The notes under the pieces were generated by a model. The model saw only the letters and a program-made list of their open reading frames with translations. It was not told the origin of the DNA and ran no database searches. DNA of 24,703 bases from Clostridiaceae bacterium (GTDB lineage: Bacteria > Bacillota > Clostridia > Saccharofermentanales > UBA5734), in the NCBI GenBank assembly GCA_012511525.1, contig JAAZFW010000099.1, positions 1-24,703 of the forward strand. Direction: 5' to 3'. Numbering within the stretch: position 1 is the stretch's first letter; each line of letters opens with the position of its first letter. The position numbers were made by a program, and so were the translations under genes. Below are positions 3,779-10,545 of the stretch, in pieces.

Positions 3779-4896
3779 TGGCAGGTTACCGTTACATTCT
3801 TTCCGGGGGCGGCACCAGCGGCCATGTGAACCCTGCCCTGGCGATTGCCGAGGCCATCCGCCAGGCTGATCCCGAGGCCGAGATCCGCTTTTACGGCACC
3901 GAACGGGGCATCGAGTCCGACCTGGTCGCACGGGCCGGCTACGCGTTCCAGGCGATCGAAGCGCGGCCGCTGCCCGGACGCCCGTCTCCCGCGATGGTCA
4001 GGGCCGCCTGGTCCTTTTGGCGCGGCCGCAGGCAATGCCGCCAGCTGATGCGCCAGTTCCGGCCGCACATCGTGATCGGCACCGGCGGCTATGTCGCAAG
4101 TCCGGTCGTATCAGCCGCTTCCTCGCTGGGCATACCGGTCCTGCTGCATGAGCAGAACGCTTTCCCCGGCCGTTCGAACCGCCTGATGGCGCGTCAAAGT
4201 CAACAGGTCTGCGTCGCGTTTCCAGGTACGGAACGCCATTTTCCCCGTCATGTGCCTATCGCCGTCACCGGCAATCCGGTCCGCCCGGCCTTTTTCAGCC
4301 AGGATCGCCAGGCGGTGCGGGAGCGTCTGCACCAGGAAGGAGAACGTCCCCTGGTTCTGGCTATGGGCGGAAGCCTGGGTGCGCGCACGATCAACCAGGC
4401 GATCCTCAGCTTGACGGACTGGGTTCACGAAATGGAAAGAGAGGGACATGTGCTTCCGCGGGTCGTCCTGGCTGCCGGCCAGCGTCAGTACGCGTCCATA
4501 GCGGCTGCGGCGGCCGCGGAAGGCCGCTGGCTCGAAGTCCATGACTACATCCACAACATCCAGGAGTGGATGGCTGCCGCCGACCTTTTGATTTGCCGGT
4601 CCGGCGCTTTGACCTGCTCTGAAATCGCGGCGCTGGGCCGTCCCGCAATCCTCGTGCCGTATCCCTACGCAGCCGGCGACCACCAGACCTTCAACGCGCG
4701 GGTGCTGGCTGACGCCGGTGGCGCCCTGCTTTGCCCTGACGCGCAGCTGACCGGGACCTGGCTCGCCTCGCGGCTGGATCAGCTCCTGAACCAGCCGGAT
4801 CAGCTGGAATCGATGGGCCGCCAGGCGGCAAGTCTGGCCAGACCTGACGCGGCCGCGGCGATTTGCGAACATGTCATGCGCCTGATCAGGCCGTGA
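3778..4896 (+). CDS. murG: Undecaprenyl-PP-MurNAc-pentapeptide GlcNAc transferase
   Basis: Motifs GGGTSGH, GTGGYVA, HEQNAFPG, TGNPVR, GGSLGA and RSGALTCSE...HQTFNA. Start is ATG 3778 (7 nt after AGGTG) or ATG 3775; both overlap the ftsW stop. Confidence 0.96.
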   Translation: MAGYRYILSGGGTSGHVNPALAIAEAIRQADPEAEIRFYGTERGIESDLVARAGYAFQAIEARPLPGRPSPAMVRAAWSFWRGRRQCRQLMRQFRPHIVIGTGGYVASPVVSAASSLGIPVLLHEQNAFPGRSNRLMARQSQQVCVAFPGTERHFPRHVPIAVTGNPVRPAFFSQDRQAVRERLHQEGERPLVLAMGGSLGARTINQAILSLTDWVHEMEREGHVLPRVVLAAGQRQYASIAAAAAAEGRWLEVHDYIHNIQEWMAAADLLICRSGALTCSEIAALGRPAILVPYPYAAGDHQTFNARVLADAGGALLCPDAQLTGTWLASRLDQLLNQPDQLESMGRQAASLARPDAAAAICEHVMRLIRP

Positions 4897-5726
4897 AAAC
4901 GCTAACCTCCAAGGACCGGCCGGCCAGAACGCCGCATCGGCTCCGGTTCCGCCTGCTAGGCTGGCCGGTGTCGCTTGCGATCCTGTTTCTGGCCGTCTGG
5001 CTCCTGCCTGTTTTCCGTTTGCAGCGCTTCGCCTGGGCGGGCGAGCTGCGCAGCCTGCACGCGGCCGGCATTGAAGCGGCCAGCGGGTTGACAAACGGGC
5101 AGCACCTGTTCGCAGGTCTGGGCGGCTCATGGGACCACTGGCTCGGCCTGCGCTACGGGACAGCAGAAGAACAAATCGCGGCCGCTTTCCCGGTTATCAA
5201 GTCGGTCAAGGTGTCGCTTGATCTGCCCGGGCAGGTGGTTTTCCGGATTGAGGAGCGCATCGAGGTCGCCTGGCTTGCCATTCCTGACGGCTGTGTCATG
5301 ATCGATAAGGATGGTGTCGCCATGGGGATCCAGGCGGACCGGCCGGGGCAGATCCCGCTGATCGAAGGCCTGACCATCCGCTCGATGACCCTGGGACAAG
5401 CCCTGGAGGCCGACACCCCTGACGCCCTGCATCGCGCGGTGGGCCTGCTCGGTGCTATAATTGAGGCGGACCGCGACACGCGTCCGCAGGTGTTCCTGCT
5501 TGGGCAAGTCAGCCAGATCCGCCCGGTCAGCGGCCGCCTACTCTATATGACGCTGGTCGTCCCGGACACCGGCGAAGCGATTTCGGTTCGTGCCGAGATC
5601 GGGCCTGAACTGACAGAACACATGCTCTGGCTGCGCTTCGCCATCGACCAGGACGTGCTGAACGGCCGCGGCAAAGGCATCCTGGACCTGACCGGCGGCA
5701 ACCGGACGTTTATCCCGGATGCATGA
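4893..5726 (+). CDS. ftsQ: Cell division protein FtsQ/DivIB-like (TM + POTRA-like domain)
   Basis: Basic N-terminus, one TM segment, then POTRA-like patterns (IEAASGLTNGQHLF; FPVIKSVKVSLDLPGQVVFRIEER). Follows murG. GTG 4893 overlaps the murG stop (GTGA), so I prefer it to the track start at 4863. Divergent; call rests on pattern and synteny. Confidence 0.75.
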   Translation: MKTLTSKDRPARTPHRLRFRLLGWPVSLAILFLAVWLLPVFRLQRFAWAGELRSLHAAGIEAASGLTNGQHLFAGLGGSWDHWLGLRYGTAEEQIAAAFPVIKSVKVSLDLPGQVVFRIEERIEVAWLAIPDGCVMIDKDGVAMGIQADRPGQIPLIEGLTIRSMTLGQALEADTPDALHRAVGLLGAIIEADRDTRPQVFLLGQVSQIRPVSGRLLYMTLVVPDTGEAISVRAEIGPELTEHMLWLRFAIDQDVLNGRGKGILDLTGGNRTFIPDA

Positions 5727-5741
5727 TGAGGAGGTTGGACG

Positions 5742-6140
5742 ATGTTTCCCATTCTTGGCTTGCTGCTTGGCCTGATCATCGGCCTGATCTGGAACCTGAA
5801 CATTCCGGACGCCTATTCATCCTACGTGGCGGTCGGGATCCTGGCCGTTCTGGATTCCGTGATCGGCGCCATGACCGCCAACTTGCAGAACCGGTTCAAC
5901 ATCCGGCTGTTCCTGACAGGGTTCCTGGGCAATACGGCAATCGCCGTGGCGCTGGCCGCGCTGGGTGACCAGCTCAATCTCCAGCTGAGCCTGGCGGCCG
6001 TGTTCGCGTTCGGCAACCGGATTTTCATCAATTTCTCGACCATTCGGCGTTTGCTGTTGGAACGCTGGGACAATCGGCGCCGTCCCGCCGGCACGGATCC
6101 TGAGAAAGCGGACGGGCGCGATCCCGTTCAGCCGTCATGA
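5742..6140 (+). CDS. sbp: Small basic protein family (Sbp/DUF1290) membrane protein
   Basis: YVAVGILAVLDSVIGA...FLTGFLGNTAIA...AAVFAFGNRIFINFSTIRR matches the Sbp family pattern. RBS GAGGAGG at 5728-5734. dcw location is typical. Confidence 0.85.
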   Translation: MFPILGLLLGLIIGLIWNLNIPDAYSSYVAVGILAVLDSVIGAMTANLQNRFNIRLFLTGFLGNTAIAVALAALGDQLNLQLSLAAVFAFGNRIFINFSTIRRLLLERWDNRRRPAGTDPEKADGRDPVQPS

Positions 6141-6148
6141 TCTGCCTT

Positions 6149-6195
6149 TGTCAATATCTTGTAAGGAGAATTTAAAATAACACTAAATATTGTTG
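6149..6195. promoter_or_regulatory. Tandem NrdR-box-like operator pair
   Basis: ACACTAAATATTGTTG (6180-6195) matches 13/16 of the recalled consensus acaCwAtATaTwGtgt. TGTCAATATCTTGTAA (6149-6164) matches the core only. The two are offset by 31 bp with a 15-bp linker. Confidence 0.6.
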
Positions 6196-6221
6196 TGTCG
6201 TTTGTCATCTTAGTGTAAAAT
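6193..6221 (+). promoter_or_regulatory. Putative sigma-A promoter for ftsZ
   Basis: TTGTGT (6193-6198), 17 bp, TAAAAT (6216-6221) in an AT-rich intergenic island. An alternative upstream pair is TTGTCA (6148-6153), 17 bp, TTTAAA (6171-6176). Confidence 0.5.
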
Positions 6222-6332
6222 TGGAAAAGAATAAGGGTGTCTGTCTGCTCCGGCCACCTTGCGCTCCGGAGACAGTCGTTTACAAAAACATACAGATAGC
6301 CAGGGCAGCTTAGGCTGAGAGGGGTTGATGGC

Positions 6333-7787
6333 TTGTCAGACTATAAAATGGGATTTGGAATGGATAACGATCACTTTGCGACCATCAAGGTCATAGGCAT
6401 CGGCGGCGGCGGATGCAACGCGGTTGACCGCATGATCAACGGTGATGTTCAGGGCATCGAATTTATCACGGTCAACACGGATAACCAGGCGCTGATGCGG
6501 ACCAATTCCAGCAATCGGATCCAGATCGGCGAGAAAATCACCCGCGGACTCGGGGCCGGCGCCAATCCCGAAATCGGCGAAAAGGCCGCCAACGAGTCGA
6601 AAGATGAAATCGCCCAGCTGATTCGCGGAACCGACATGCTGTTCATCACGGCCGGCATGGGCGGCGGTACCGGTACCGGCGGGGCCCCGGTCATCGCCCA
6701 AATCGCCCGGGAACTGGGTATCCTGACGGTCGGTGTCGTCACGCGGCCCTTCCGTTTTGAAGGGTCGCGGCGCATGCAGAATGCCGAACGCGGCATCCGC
6801 GAAATGGAGAAATATGTCGACTCCCTGATTGTCGTGCCCAATGACAAGCTGCTGGAGATCGCAACCGAAGACACCACGCTCGACGAAGCCTTCACCCTGG
6901 CCGACCAGGTCCTCAAGTACGGCGTTTCCGGCATTTCCGACCTGGTCGCTGTGCCCGGATTGATCAATCTCGACCTGGCCGATGTCCGCCGTGTCATGAC
7001 CCAGGCAGGTGTCTGCCATATGGGGATCGGCCGCGCTTCCGGCGAAGGCCGCGCGGCCAATGCCATCCGGCAGGCGATTAACAGCCCGCTGCTGGACACG
7101 ACGATCGACGGTGCGCGCGGTGTGATCATCAACTTCACCGGCGGCCGCGACATGCGGATCCGCGAAGTCGATGAGGCGGCCTCGATCGTACGCGACGCCG
7201 TATCGCCAGATGCAGACATCATCTTCGGCGCGGTGATTGACCCGGAAATGGAAGATGACATCATGATCACGGTCATCGCCAGCGGGTTTGACCGCGAAAT
7301 AGCGCCGTCCGCCCAGCCACGGACAACCGCTGCCGCCGCCCCGAGCCGCCCCAGCCCCTTTGCGGCCAAGGCGCAGCCGGCTGAACCTCAACCCGAAAAA
7401 CCGCCCGAGCAGACGGCGCCCGCCAAAAAGCAGGTCGATGAAGAGGTGTCCGAGATCCCCGACTTCCTGTCGTCAGCATTTTCCCGCCCGCAGGAGCAGC
7501 CTGCCCGTCCCCAAAGCAACAGCACGGGATTTCACACGGTAGGCACCCAGCAGGAAGCCGCAGAAGAAGACCAGACCCGGACCTTTGTCCCGTCTTACCA
7601 TAATCAGCAGCCCCGTCCGGCTCCCGAAAAAGCCGCGCCCGCCCCGCAGCCGCCCCAGGCCAGACCCCAGGAACCGGCGCGCGGCAGCGAGACTGCTGAA
7701 GAACCCGAGCCGAAACGTGAGAAGCGTTCCGGCCGTATCCTGCCCTGGTTTTTACAGGACAACAACGGCCGTTCCCAGGACTCGTAA
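6333..7787 (+). CDS. ftsZ: Cell division GTPase FtsZ with long C-terminal linker
   Basis: [14 protein letters not shown], tubulin signature [14 protein letters not shown]7 loop INLDLADV, globular domain ending VIASGFD. TTG start 8 nt after AGAGGGG. Confidence 0.98.
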
Positions 7788-7852
7788 CGCTTTAACGGCC
7801 ACTGGACCGGGCGTCACCCGATCCAAACGCGGTAGAGTGAGGAGGTGACGGT

Positions 7853-8320
7853 ATGCGCTGTCCCTTTTGCGGACACGATGAGGACAAGGTGATCGATTCC
7901 CGTCCGGCGGACGATGGTGCGGCGATCCGCCGCCGCCGTGAATGCATCAACTGCGGGAACCGTTTCACGACCTATGAAAAAATTGAGAACCTGCCTTTGA
8001 TGGTGATCAAGAAAGACGGTTCGCGCCAGCCGTTCAACCGGGACAAGCTGATTTCCGGCATCATGAAAAGCTGCGAAAAGCGTCCGGTGTCGACCGAGCA
8101 GATCGAATCGCTGGTCGATGCCATCGAGAGCCGATACCAGAACAGCCTCAAGCGGGAGGTCCAGTCCAGGGAAATCGGCGAGCAAGTCATGGAAGGGCTG
8201 AAGCAAATCGACGAGGTCGCCTATGTTCGCTTCGCCTCTGTCTACCGCCAGTTCAAGGATGTCAGCTCATTCCTGCACGAACTCAACGAAATTCTTGGCA
8301 AGCAGGAGGAGATCCGCTGA
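7853..8320 (+). CDS. nrdR: Transcriptional repressor NrdR
   Basis: Zn ribbon MRCPFC...[17 protein letters not shown] plus ATP-cone ([16 protein letters not shown]...[13 protein letters not shown]). RBS GAGGAGGTGA. Confidence 0.97.
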
Positions 8321-9030
8321 TGAAAAAAGCACTCATCGTCGACGACGACCCCAACATCAGTGAACTGCTGCGCCTTTATTTCGATAAGGACGGTTTTGCC
8401 GTCATCACGTGCCTCGACGGTGAGAAGGCGGTCGAGACCTTCAACCAGGCCAATCCGGATGTCGTCATATTGGACCTGATGCTGCCCGGACGCGACGGCT
8501 ACGACATCATGCGCGACATCCGGCGCTCGTCCGATGTTCCGATCCTCATGCTGACCGCCCGCGGCGATACGCTGGACAAGGTCGTCGGCCTGGAACTGGG
8601 CGCGGACGATTACATCCAGAAACCCTTTGAGCCCAAAGAACTGATGGCGCGCGTCAAGGCTGTGCTGCGCCGCTATGAGAGCGGCCAGGAACCTAAATTC
8701 GTCCCCGGTGCGCGGGAGGGCGGCGAGGTGGCTGACTACCCTGGTTTGCGCGTCGACAAATCGCGCTACACGGTCAGCGTCAACGAACGGGAACTCGAGA
8801 TGCCGCCCAAGGAGCTTGAACTCCTTTTTTTCCTCGCCACGCACCCCAATCGCGTTTTTACGCGCGAGCAGCTGCTGGAAAATGTTTGGGGCTATGACTT
8901 CTATGGCGAGTCGCGCACGGTCGATGTCCACATCAAGCGCATTCGCGAAAAGCTCGAAGCGGCCGGACCGCATCCGTCCTGGTCGATCAAGACCGTCTGG
9001 AGCGTCGGCTACAAATTCGAGACGGCCTGA
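8320..9030 (+). CDS. OmpR/PhoB-family DNA-binding response regulator
   Basis: Receiver domain (IVDDD, LDLMLPGRDG, MLTAR, GADDYIQKPF) plus winged-helix domain (RVFTREQLLENVWG, RTVDVHIKRIREKL). Start overlaps the nrdR stop (TGATG). Confidence 0.95.
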   Translation: MKKALIVDDDPNISELLRLYFDKDGFAVITCLDGEKAVETFNQANPDVVILDLMLPGRDGYDIMRDIRRSSDVPILMLTARGDTLDKVVGLELGADDYIQKPFEPKELMARVKAVLRRYESGQEPKFVPGAREGGEVADYPGLRVDKSRYTVSVNERELEMPPKELELLFFLATHPNRVFTREQLLENVWGYDFYGESRTVDVHIKRIREKLEAAGPHPSWSIKTVWSVGYKFETA

Positions 9031-9039
9031 CACGAAGCG

Positions 9040-10545
9040 ATGGCAAGGCGCTTGTTTTCCCGGTCCTTCTATGTACGGACGATCGTCCAGCTGACATTGG
9101 CCATCCTGGTTGTTTTTTTGGTTCTCAGCCTGGTTTACTACGCCATCGTGTCGCGCAACAGCATGCGCCAGCAAGCAAACAAACTGCTCAACGCAGCCCA
9201 GGCCATCTCCAGCGCCATTGCGATCAACCTCAGTGCCGACGGCGATATCGAGAACCCGCAGGTGAACAGCTTTGTGAATTTCACCGCCCGTTCCAGCGGC
9301 GCGATCGTCTGGATTATCAATTTCAGGGGCGAGATCATCCTGCAGACCGGTTTGCCGGCGGTGGTGCGCGAACGGCTGGAACGATCCGAGCGCGGTTATT
9401 TCGTCCTGCCCGATGAATTCCTGGCAGCGAAAAGCAGCGGCACCTCCGGCATGACCCAGGGCGGTGACTTTTCCGGCCTGCTGGCCGACAGCGGGGCCTA
9501 CTGGCTGTCGGCGGCCTACCCGGTTCCAACCGGGAATTTCGGCTACCGCGGCGAAATACAGCTGCACATGCAGACGCAGGACGTCAATTTTACCGCTTTC
9601 CTGATGACCAACGGCCTGATCGTGTCATTTCTGGTCGCGTTCGCCACCGCGCTTGTGATCAACGGCATCATCTCGCGCAACATCACCCGCCCGATCCGCC
9701 TGCTCTCCGAAGCGGCCGAGAAGGTGACCCGCGGCGATCTGAGCGCTCGGGTCGAACTGCCGAAAAAGGCGCCTGGACGGCTGCAGGGTTTGGTGACCGA
9801 TGACCTGACCGGCCTGGTCGAGACAATGAACAGCATGATGGACAAGTTGGCCAACCAGGAACGCGACCGCAAGGACTTCATCTCCAGCGTCTCCCATGAC
9901 CTGCGCACCCCGATCACCACGATCCGCGGTTTTGTCGAGGGCATGCTCGACGGGACGATCCCGCCGGAACGATCGCCGCACTACCTGGAGATCGTTAAGC
10001 AGGAGGTTTTGCGTCTTCAGACCTTGGTCAACACGATGTTCGAGGGCACCGTTCTGGAAAGCGCACAAAAGATCAACCAGACGGTTTTCGACATCAACCA
10101 GGTTATCAAGGAAGATATCATCGGTCTGGAGTCGTTGCTGTCCGAAAAGCGGCTCGACGTCCAGACGGAATTTCTAAATGACGACAACGGCAGACTGCTC
10201 GTCCTCGGCGACCGCGAGGCGATCAGCCGGGTCGTATACAACATCGTGTCCAATGCCATCCATTACACGCCTGACGACGGCATCATCGCCCTGACGACGC
10301 GCAAATCAGACCGCCCCAAGGAGATTGAAGTCGTTATCGACGATTCAGGCCCGGGCATTCCTGAACAGGAATACCCGTATATCTTCGACCGCTTCTATAA
10401 AGTCGACAAGTCACGCACGTCCAAGGGATCCGGACTGGGGCTTTATATCTGCCGCACCATCCTGGCCGCCCACGGCCAGAAAATCCGGGTGGCGCGCAGC
10501 GATCTCGGCGGGGCCCGTTTCATTTTCACGTTGCAAAGCCCCTGA
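9040..10545 (+). CDS. Membrane sensor histidine kinase (2 TM, HAMP, HisKA, HATPase)
   Basis: H-box SVSHDLRTPITTIRGF, N-box NIVSNAIHY, G boxes DSGPGI / IFDRFYK / GSGLGL. Two hydrophobic segments flank an external domain. No obvious cytoplasmic PAS domain. Confidence 0.95.
   Translation: MARRLFSRSFYVRTIVQLTLAILVVFLVLSLVYYAIVSRNSMRQQANKLLNAAQAISSAIAINLSADGDIENPQVNSFVNFTARSSGAIVWIINFRGEIILQTGLPAVVRERLERSERGYFVLPDEFLAAKSSGTSGMTQGGDFSGLLADSGAYWLSAAYPVPTGNFGYRGEIQLHMQTQDVNFTAFLMTNGLIVSFLVAFATALVINGIISRNITRPIRLLSEAAEKVTRGDLSARVELPKKAPGRLQGLVTDDLTGLVETMNSMMDKLANQERDRKDFISSVSHDLRTPITTIRGFVEGMLDGTIPPERSPHYLEIVKQEVLRLQTLVNTMFEGTVLESAQKINQTVFDINQVIKEDIIGLESLLSEKRLDVQTEFLNDDNGRLLVLGDREAISRVVYNIVSNAIHYTPDDGIIALTTRKSDRPKEIEVVIDDSGPGIPEQEYPYIFDRFYKVDKSRTSKGSGLGLYICRTILAAHGQKIRVARSDLGGARFIFTLQSP

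Follow-up and report, generated by a model that had tools for sequence, protein, structure and literature searches.

Positions 6149–6195 of the window, which is the whole 24,703-nt stretch of DNA analysed here, carry what we regard as a real feature: a putative NrdR operator of canonical paired architecture on the ftsZ promoter, to which NrdR is predicted to bind. It is likely that this operator serves the promoter of an ftsZ-nrdR unit, through which nrdR would be autoregulated and FtsZ would be coupled to the demand for dNTPs. The initial annotation had proposed NrdR autoregulation and ftsZ control through the ftsZ promoter, and the computational tests support this proposal. The binding of NrdR, its nucleotide dependence, the repression, and an effect on the FtsZ level or on division are what the pattern predicts. 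The features of the region are as follows.

6149–6164, unstranded: NrdR box 1, TGTCAATATCTTGTAA, promoter-distal, 8.0 bits with the nrd-trained position weight matrix (PWM), conserved in the alignment.
6165–6179, unstranded: inter-box spacer of 15 bp, 31 bp start to start, approximately three helical turns.
6180–6195, unstranded: NrdR box 2, ACACTAAATATTGTTG, promoter-proximal, 14.5 bits, last 3 nt overlapping the −35, conserved.
6193–6198, plus strand: predicted −35 hexamer TTGTGT, 17 nt upstream of the conserved −10, assigned from conservation.
6210–6221, plus strand: extended −10 region, TTAGTG and TAAAAT, a near-invariant alignment block with the −10 at 6216–6221.
6228–6332, plus strand: predicted 5′ untranslated leader of approximately 105 nt, with the RBS GAGAGGGG at 6317–6324.
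6333–7787, plus strand: ftsZ, 484 aa, Pfam Tubulin (1.7e-51) and FtsZ_C (1.4e-34), conserved TTG start.
7788–7852, plus strand: ftsZ-nrdR spacer of 65 bp, with a weak hairpin and no T-tract, bridged by metatranscriptome contigs.
7853–8320, plus strand: nrdR, 155 aa, Zn-ribbon and ATP-cone repressor, Pfam PF22811 and PF03477, NCBIfam TIGR00244 equivalog.
8320–10545, plus strand: response regulator (8320–9030) and histidine kinase with HAMP (9040–10545), from Pfam.

The window is the whole of contig C453 of a metagenome-assembled genome (MAG) of 2.57 Mb, with a GC content of 61%, 601 contigs, and 94% completeness. The closest public relatives, likewise MAGs, come from digesters and guts and bear the labels uncultured Oscillospiraceae, Saccharofermentans, or Clostridia. 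The genes of the window are arranged in the order murF-mraY-ftsW-murG-ftsQ-DUF1290(sbp)-ftsZ-nrdR-response regulator-histidine kinase-htrA-nth-recG. The ftsA gene is absent between ftsQ and ftsZ (4863–6332), and a DUF1290 (sbp-like) gene (5742–6140) stands in its place; this order is conserved in the family. The cognate NrdR, with its Zn-ribbon and ATP-cone, is encoded within the window itself and scored 212 bits against TIGR00244 (cut-off 124.65). The genes downstream of the 6149–6195 pair are ftsZ, nrdR, and the two-component system, with no reductase operon. The reductase genes are located on other contigs, nrdD on C218 and the B12-dependent nrdJ on C117 (TIGR02504 above cut-off). The nrdJ of this genome is split over two contigs, C117 and C378. 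A search of the genome for an R2 subunit found none, and its reductases appear to be limited to classes II and III. Hydroxyurea, which the initial annotation had named as a test, is therefore unsuited to this organism.

Box 2 (ACACTAAATATTGTTG) has three mismatches to the NrdR consensus ACACWATATATWGTGT and matches it at 13 of 16 positions; its coordinates and sequence had been given correctly. It is the sole match with at most three mismatches in the window, where shuffles gave an expectation of 0, and one of four such matches in the whole 2.57-Mb genome, another of which lies upstream of nrdD. Box 1 (TGTCAATATCTTGTAA) is weak, with poor flanks. Its description as a site starting 31 bp upstream with the core kept agrees with our result, as 9 of the 10 core positions are kept.

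The checks proposed with the initial annotation, namely a PWM from the nrd genes, an AT-rich background, and the conservation of boxes and spacing, were run. The PWM was a palindromic 16-bp matrix refined on tandem sites 31–32 bp apart, and no ftsZ sequence was included. Training used only sequences from upstream of nrdD and nrdJ in 40 relatives, of which 24 belong to the same family and 16 to three sister families. Tandem boxes 31–32 bp apart occurred in 43/56 nrdD/nrdJ upstream regions of the relatives. By eye, both nrdD and nrdJ of the window's own genome have a box pair, with distances of 31 and 32 bp. With this matrix, box 2 is the third-best single box genome-wide. The summed score of the ftsZ pair is 22.5 bits (22.47), which ranks third among the tandem pairs of the genome after nrdD (27.5) and nrdJ (26.5) and just before a pair upstream of veg on contig C256 (22.46). 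The next pair scored 14.7, and these four loci are the only ones above 15 bits.

In the background tests, the intergenic region, or its AT-rich core, was shuffled with its dinucleotides preserved; 0 of 20,000 shuffles reached 22.5 bits, and the maximum was 18.0. Among 359 AT-rich 200-bp windows of the genome, only those at nrdJ, veg (C256), and ftsZ exceeded 15. These two tests answer the caveat that both the consensus and the region are AT-rich. The 15-bp spacer of the ftsZ pair fits the 14–17 bp range and gives integer helical turns between the box centres. Spacers that bind NrdR in vitro are 14–17 or 24–27 bp long, also with integer helical turns (PMC12051234), and tight binding requires both boxes (PMC12051234, PMC13584703, bioRxiv 10.1101/2024.05.27.596032).

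The promoter was assigned from conservation only; a simple sigma-70 consensus scan did not call it. All family relatives share the −35 motif TTGT(A/G/T)N, even the box-less ones, and the block TTAGTG-TA(A/G)AAT stands 20 nt after box 2 in nearly all of the 22 distinct ftsZ operators. The boxes had been described as overlapping both candidate −35 elements. Box 2 does overlap the predicted, conserved −35, by 3 nt, but only one conserved promoter is supported, and box 1, farther upstream, is clear of it. A second promoter (TTGTCA at 6148–6153 and TAAAAT at 6173–6178) was rejected, with a 19-nt spacer and conservation in the closest relatives only. The TTAGTGT at 6210–6216, which had been taken for a mirror half-site of box 2, is present and forms part of the extended −10. 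The corresponding third box at 6201–6216 scored −12.9 bits and was rejected. The TTAGTGT motif persists in relatives lacking both boxes, which marks it as part of the promoter rather than a third box.

The predicted transcription start is near 6228, approximately 105 nt upstream of ftsZ. The leader is poorly conserved in the alignment except for the RBS GAGAGGGG. Comparison with Rfam gave no match in the window, and the leader folded no better than its shuffles (z = +0.27); a riboswitch or other structured RNA in this leader was thus rejected. As judged from the sequence, ftsZ most likely begins not at a downstream ATG but at TTG 6333, which is located 8 nt after the RBS GAGAGGGG and is conserved as TTG or GTG in relatives. 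The TTG start gives ftsZ a conserved MSDYK-type N-terminal extension ahead of the first ATG (6333–6360).

In a comparison with 24 family-level relatives and 16 genomes of three sister families, a pair scoring 16 bits or more was found upstream of ftsZ in 19/24 family relatives and in one sister-family genome (G034), with spacers of 14 (G017), 15, 16, or 25 bp (G010), in keeping with helical phase. One further relative (G005) retained one strong box at ftsZ. The remaining four (G007 of the same genus, G013, G015, and G019) kept the ftsZ promoter (−35, TTAGTG, and −10), and both boxes are absent. Tandem boxes persist at nrdD, nrdJ, and/or veg in G007, G013, and G019, and G015 has a weak veg pair only. 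This distribution in the aligned genomes shows that ftsZ has probably been lost from, or gained by, the NrdR regulon repeatedly. These four relatives manage without the boxes, so NrdR control of ftsZ is dispensable.

The box sequences diverge among relatives, with C4, A6, A8, T9, T11, and G13 kept. The information-content profile of box 1 over the 22 distinct ftsZ operators correlates with the nrd PWM (r = 0.93). The mean information content is 0.43 in the spacer versus 1.0–1.2 in the boxes, and the upstream flank is likewise not conserved. The positional scan of 155 kb of ftsZ-nrdR loci found every pair 100–230 bp upstream of ftsZ and none elsewhere. When the scan was widened to 80 further-reaching nrdR loci (~450 kb) with a threshold of 17 bits, only the five closest relatives had the pair at ftsZ; three others had one immediately before nrdR, and a single pair lay at another site. 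In 17/80 of these loci ftsZ and nrdR are adjacent. The three others are L188, L190, and L193 (Thermincola, Bacillota, and Lutisporaceae MAGs), where tandem pairs of 25–30 bits lie 60–240 bp directly upstream of nrdR. Their position suggests either direct nrdR autoregulation or a nrdR-led reductase operon.

The fourth tandem NrdR operator of the genome (C256:5979–6026; G000, locus L131:2480–2527) has a 16-bp spacer and scored 22.5 bits. The minus-strand fhs (formate-tetrahydrofolate ligase) and the plus-strand veg (Pfam VEG) flank it, and a TTGACT −35 follows 8 nt downstream as part of the predicted veg promoter TTGACT/TGATACAAT. A pair approximately 160 bp upstream of veg was found in 26/30 relatives from three families. 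The veg site is more widely conserved than the ftsZ site.

The nrdR gene directly follows ftsZ in 38/38 relatives in which nrdR was found, a linkage that extends across the order. Its apparent absence from the two remaining genomes (G003:C538, L242; G007:C62, L243) is explained by contig breaks inside ftsZ; the assemblies of several relatives probably break in the low-complexity ftsZ tail. The ftsZ-nrdR gap is 8–99 bp and terminator-free in 21/22 family loci, and 0–18 bp in one sister family. Four sister-family genomes with tightly coupled ftsZ-nrdR (G025, G031, G037, and G040) have no boxes within ~2 kb upstream; their nrdD upstream regions score low too, with the gene starts guessed. The statement that nrdR begins 65 bp after ftsZ with no U-tract terminator between them is borne out at 7788–7852. 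Scanning of this spacer and of the gaps of the family relatives found no nrdR promoter, NrdR box, or terminator, and a separate nrdR promoter, box, or terminator in the spacer was therefore rejected.

Public digester metatranscriptome runs, selected for holding this sequence, gave an RNA depth of 2–4 and contigs without direction. In three runs contigs cover ftsZ and nrdR, and each of these runs yielded a contig that bridges the spacer (7726–7969, 7732–8012, and 7742–7919), at a depth of 2–3 and with DNA carry-over possible. The depth over the upstream dcw genes (4800–6269) was 0 in these three runs, and a run that is probably DNA covers 4800–6269. The bridging contigs and the zero upstream depth fit a transcript whose start lies in the sbp/ftsZ intergenic region and which extends through nrdR, and they lend weak support to a single such transcript. 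The short terminator-free gaps and, as weak RNA evidence, these contigs agree with the earlier reading of ftsZ-nrdR as an operon. The start of the response regulator gene overlaps the nrdR stop, and RNA contigs span this junction in two runs; the two-component system may be on the same transcript, under the NrdR-controlled promoter.

We propose the following mechanism. At high dATP, NrdR would shut the ftsZ-nrdR promoter together with those of nrdD, nrdJ, and veg. When dATP becomes scarce relative to ATP, NrdR would leave the DNA, and at low dATP ftsZ and nrdR would be expressed along with the nrdD and nrdJ operons and veg. NrdR synthesis would thus be placed under negative feedback through the ftsZ promoter. 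A fall in dATP would raise FtsZ synthesis along with that of the reductases, and FtsZ synthesis would follow dNTP demand. FtsZ activity in the studied bacteria is controlled mostly after translation, so the transcriptional effect may be small.

The most serious competitor to this mechanism accepts the operator as real and holds that its selected function is nrdR negative autoregulation only. The ftsZ gene would then be a passenger, its protein level buffered by other promoters, dcw read-through, or post-transcriptional or post-translational control, and division would not be meaningfully tied to dNTP status. We consider this unlikely, at roughly one chance in six, although the comparative pattern is compatible with either ftsZ or nrdR as the target of selection. 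In its favour, box presence tracks terminator-free ftsZ-nrdR linkage, which favours autoregulation: the ftsZ boxes were found where the two genes are tightly linked without a terminator (in the family and in G034), and two sister families with hairpin and T-run terminators in the ftsZ-nrdR gap have no boxes at ftsZ. The three distant Firmicutes with tandem boxes directly upstream of nrdR show that such autoregulation may exist elsewhere. There is no terminator between sbp and the ftsZ promoter, and read-through from ftsQ-sbp is compatible with the sequence. However, the upstream dcw genes have no RNA coverage, which speaks against strong read-through, and G020 retains the boxes despite a T-rich ftsZ-nrdR gap of 135 bp. 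The two sister families with terminators also have no boxes in the gap itself. Autoregulation of nrdR is moreover rare, being seen in 3/80 of the wider loci here and never found in Proteobacteria (PMC5343134), so there is no general need for it that would explain the recruitment of the ftsZ promoter.

Two further explanations concern the boxes themselves. An AT-rich promoter or UP-element could have produced the match incidentally, or another factor could use the site, with no binding of NrdR in either case. The low GC content of the sbp/ftsZ intergenic region (6141–6332), 30% against 61% for the genome, the AT-rich NrdR consensus, and the weak flanks of box 1 would suit this explanation. In addition, the 3′ half of box 2 (TTGTTG) coincides with promoter sequence that the four box-less relatives also have, so part of the box 2 score is owed to the promoter. 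We nevertheless judge it improbable. The shuffles never reached the observed score, and the only other AT-rich windows to stand out belong to reductase and veg promoters. The conserved positions are those of the reductase operators, and the spacers obey a rule of 14–16 or 25 bp. The box-less relatives lack box 1 and the 5′ half of box 2 and retain the promoter, which makes the boxes a separable module. It is more improbable still that NrdR activates the ftsZ-nrdR promoter instead of repressing it. NrdR was reported to up-regulate topA in P. aeruginosa through a promoter box (PMC4409342), and the position of box 1 upstream of the −35 is compatible with activation. However, topA has a single box, whereas the paired architecture mediates repression at reductase operons (10.1101/2025.03.28.645925), and box 2 overlaps the predicted −35, as in repressed promoters.

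The repressor operator preferred here has the architecture of known reductase operators, and a predicted position at the promoter like theirs. L. monocytogenes nrdDG, S. coelicolor nrdRJ, and E. coli nrdHIEF have two partially palindromic 16-bp boxes of shared consensus with a 15–16 bp spacer, next to or overlapping the −35/−10 (PMC12051234), and nrdD and nrdJ of the window's own genome have an identical architecture. The predicted layout is that of S. pneumoniae nrdDG, whose box 2 takes in the −35 (PMC12051234). The target differs and the architecture does not, since the genes served here are ftsZ and nrdR and not a reductase. The arrangement is also like S. coelicolor nrdRJ, where, according to the summary in PMC4409342, nrdR is autoregulated indirectly in an operon under NrdR boxes. 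Unlike in Streptomyces, where nrdR comes first and its partner is nrdJ, nrdR is here the second gene and its partner is ftsZ.

The boxes of topA (Pseudomonas) and dnaA (Shewanella) likewise extend the NrdR regulon to DNA-related genes beyond dNTP synthesis. These non-reductase genes have single boxes (10.1101/2025.03.28.645925), with activation reported in the case of topA, whereas the ftsZ and veg sites are full pairs of canonical spacing, conserved across the family and the order, respectively. In genome-wide work on E. coli and P. aeruginosa, paired boxes turned up at reductase operons and nowhere else, and the oligomerisation mechanism was taken as reductase-specific (10.1101/2025.03.28.645925). 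Our literature search found no report of ftsZ or veg as a NrdR target, in line with the initial annotation for ftsZ; Rodionov & Gelfand 2005 and RegPrecise could list such predictions. The ftsZ and veg pairs are new as a known NrdR operator architecture at non-reductase targets.

The family-wide ftsZ pair and the order-wide veg pair are counter-examples to the view that box pairs and the tetramer mechanism are limited to reductase operons. With modest confidence, we lean towards the broader reading that NrdR in this order of Clostridia is not reductase-specific and acts as a dATP/ATP-sensing regulator of the replication-division cycle at ftsZ (hence nrdR) and veg, through the tetramer-on-two-boxes mechanism. 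These would be the first canonical paired operators outside the reductase genes, and they would connect the dNTP pool to the divisome directly at the level of transcription. The veg operator also gives a starting point for work on Veg, whose function is poorly understood. The circuit pointed to is one in which the nucleotide signal for dNTP synthesis would also set the synthesis of a division protein and of the repressor itself. Natural box-less variants, such as G007 of the same genus, provide a ready comparison. For the Clostridia, this would be a testable candidate link by which replication and division may be coordinated without the known nucleoid-occlusion or SOS-type checkpoints.
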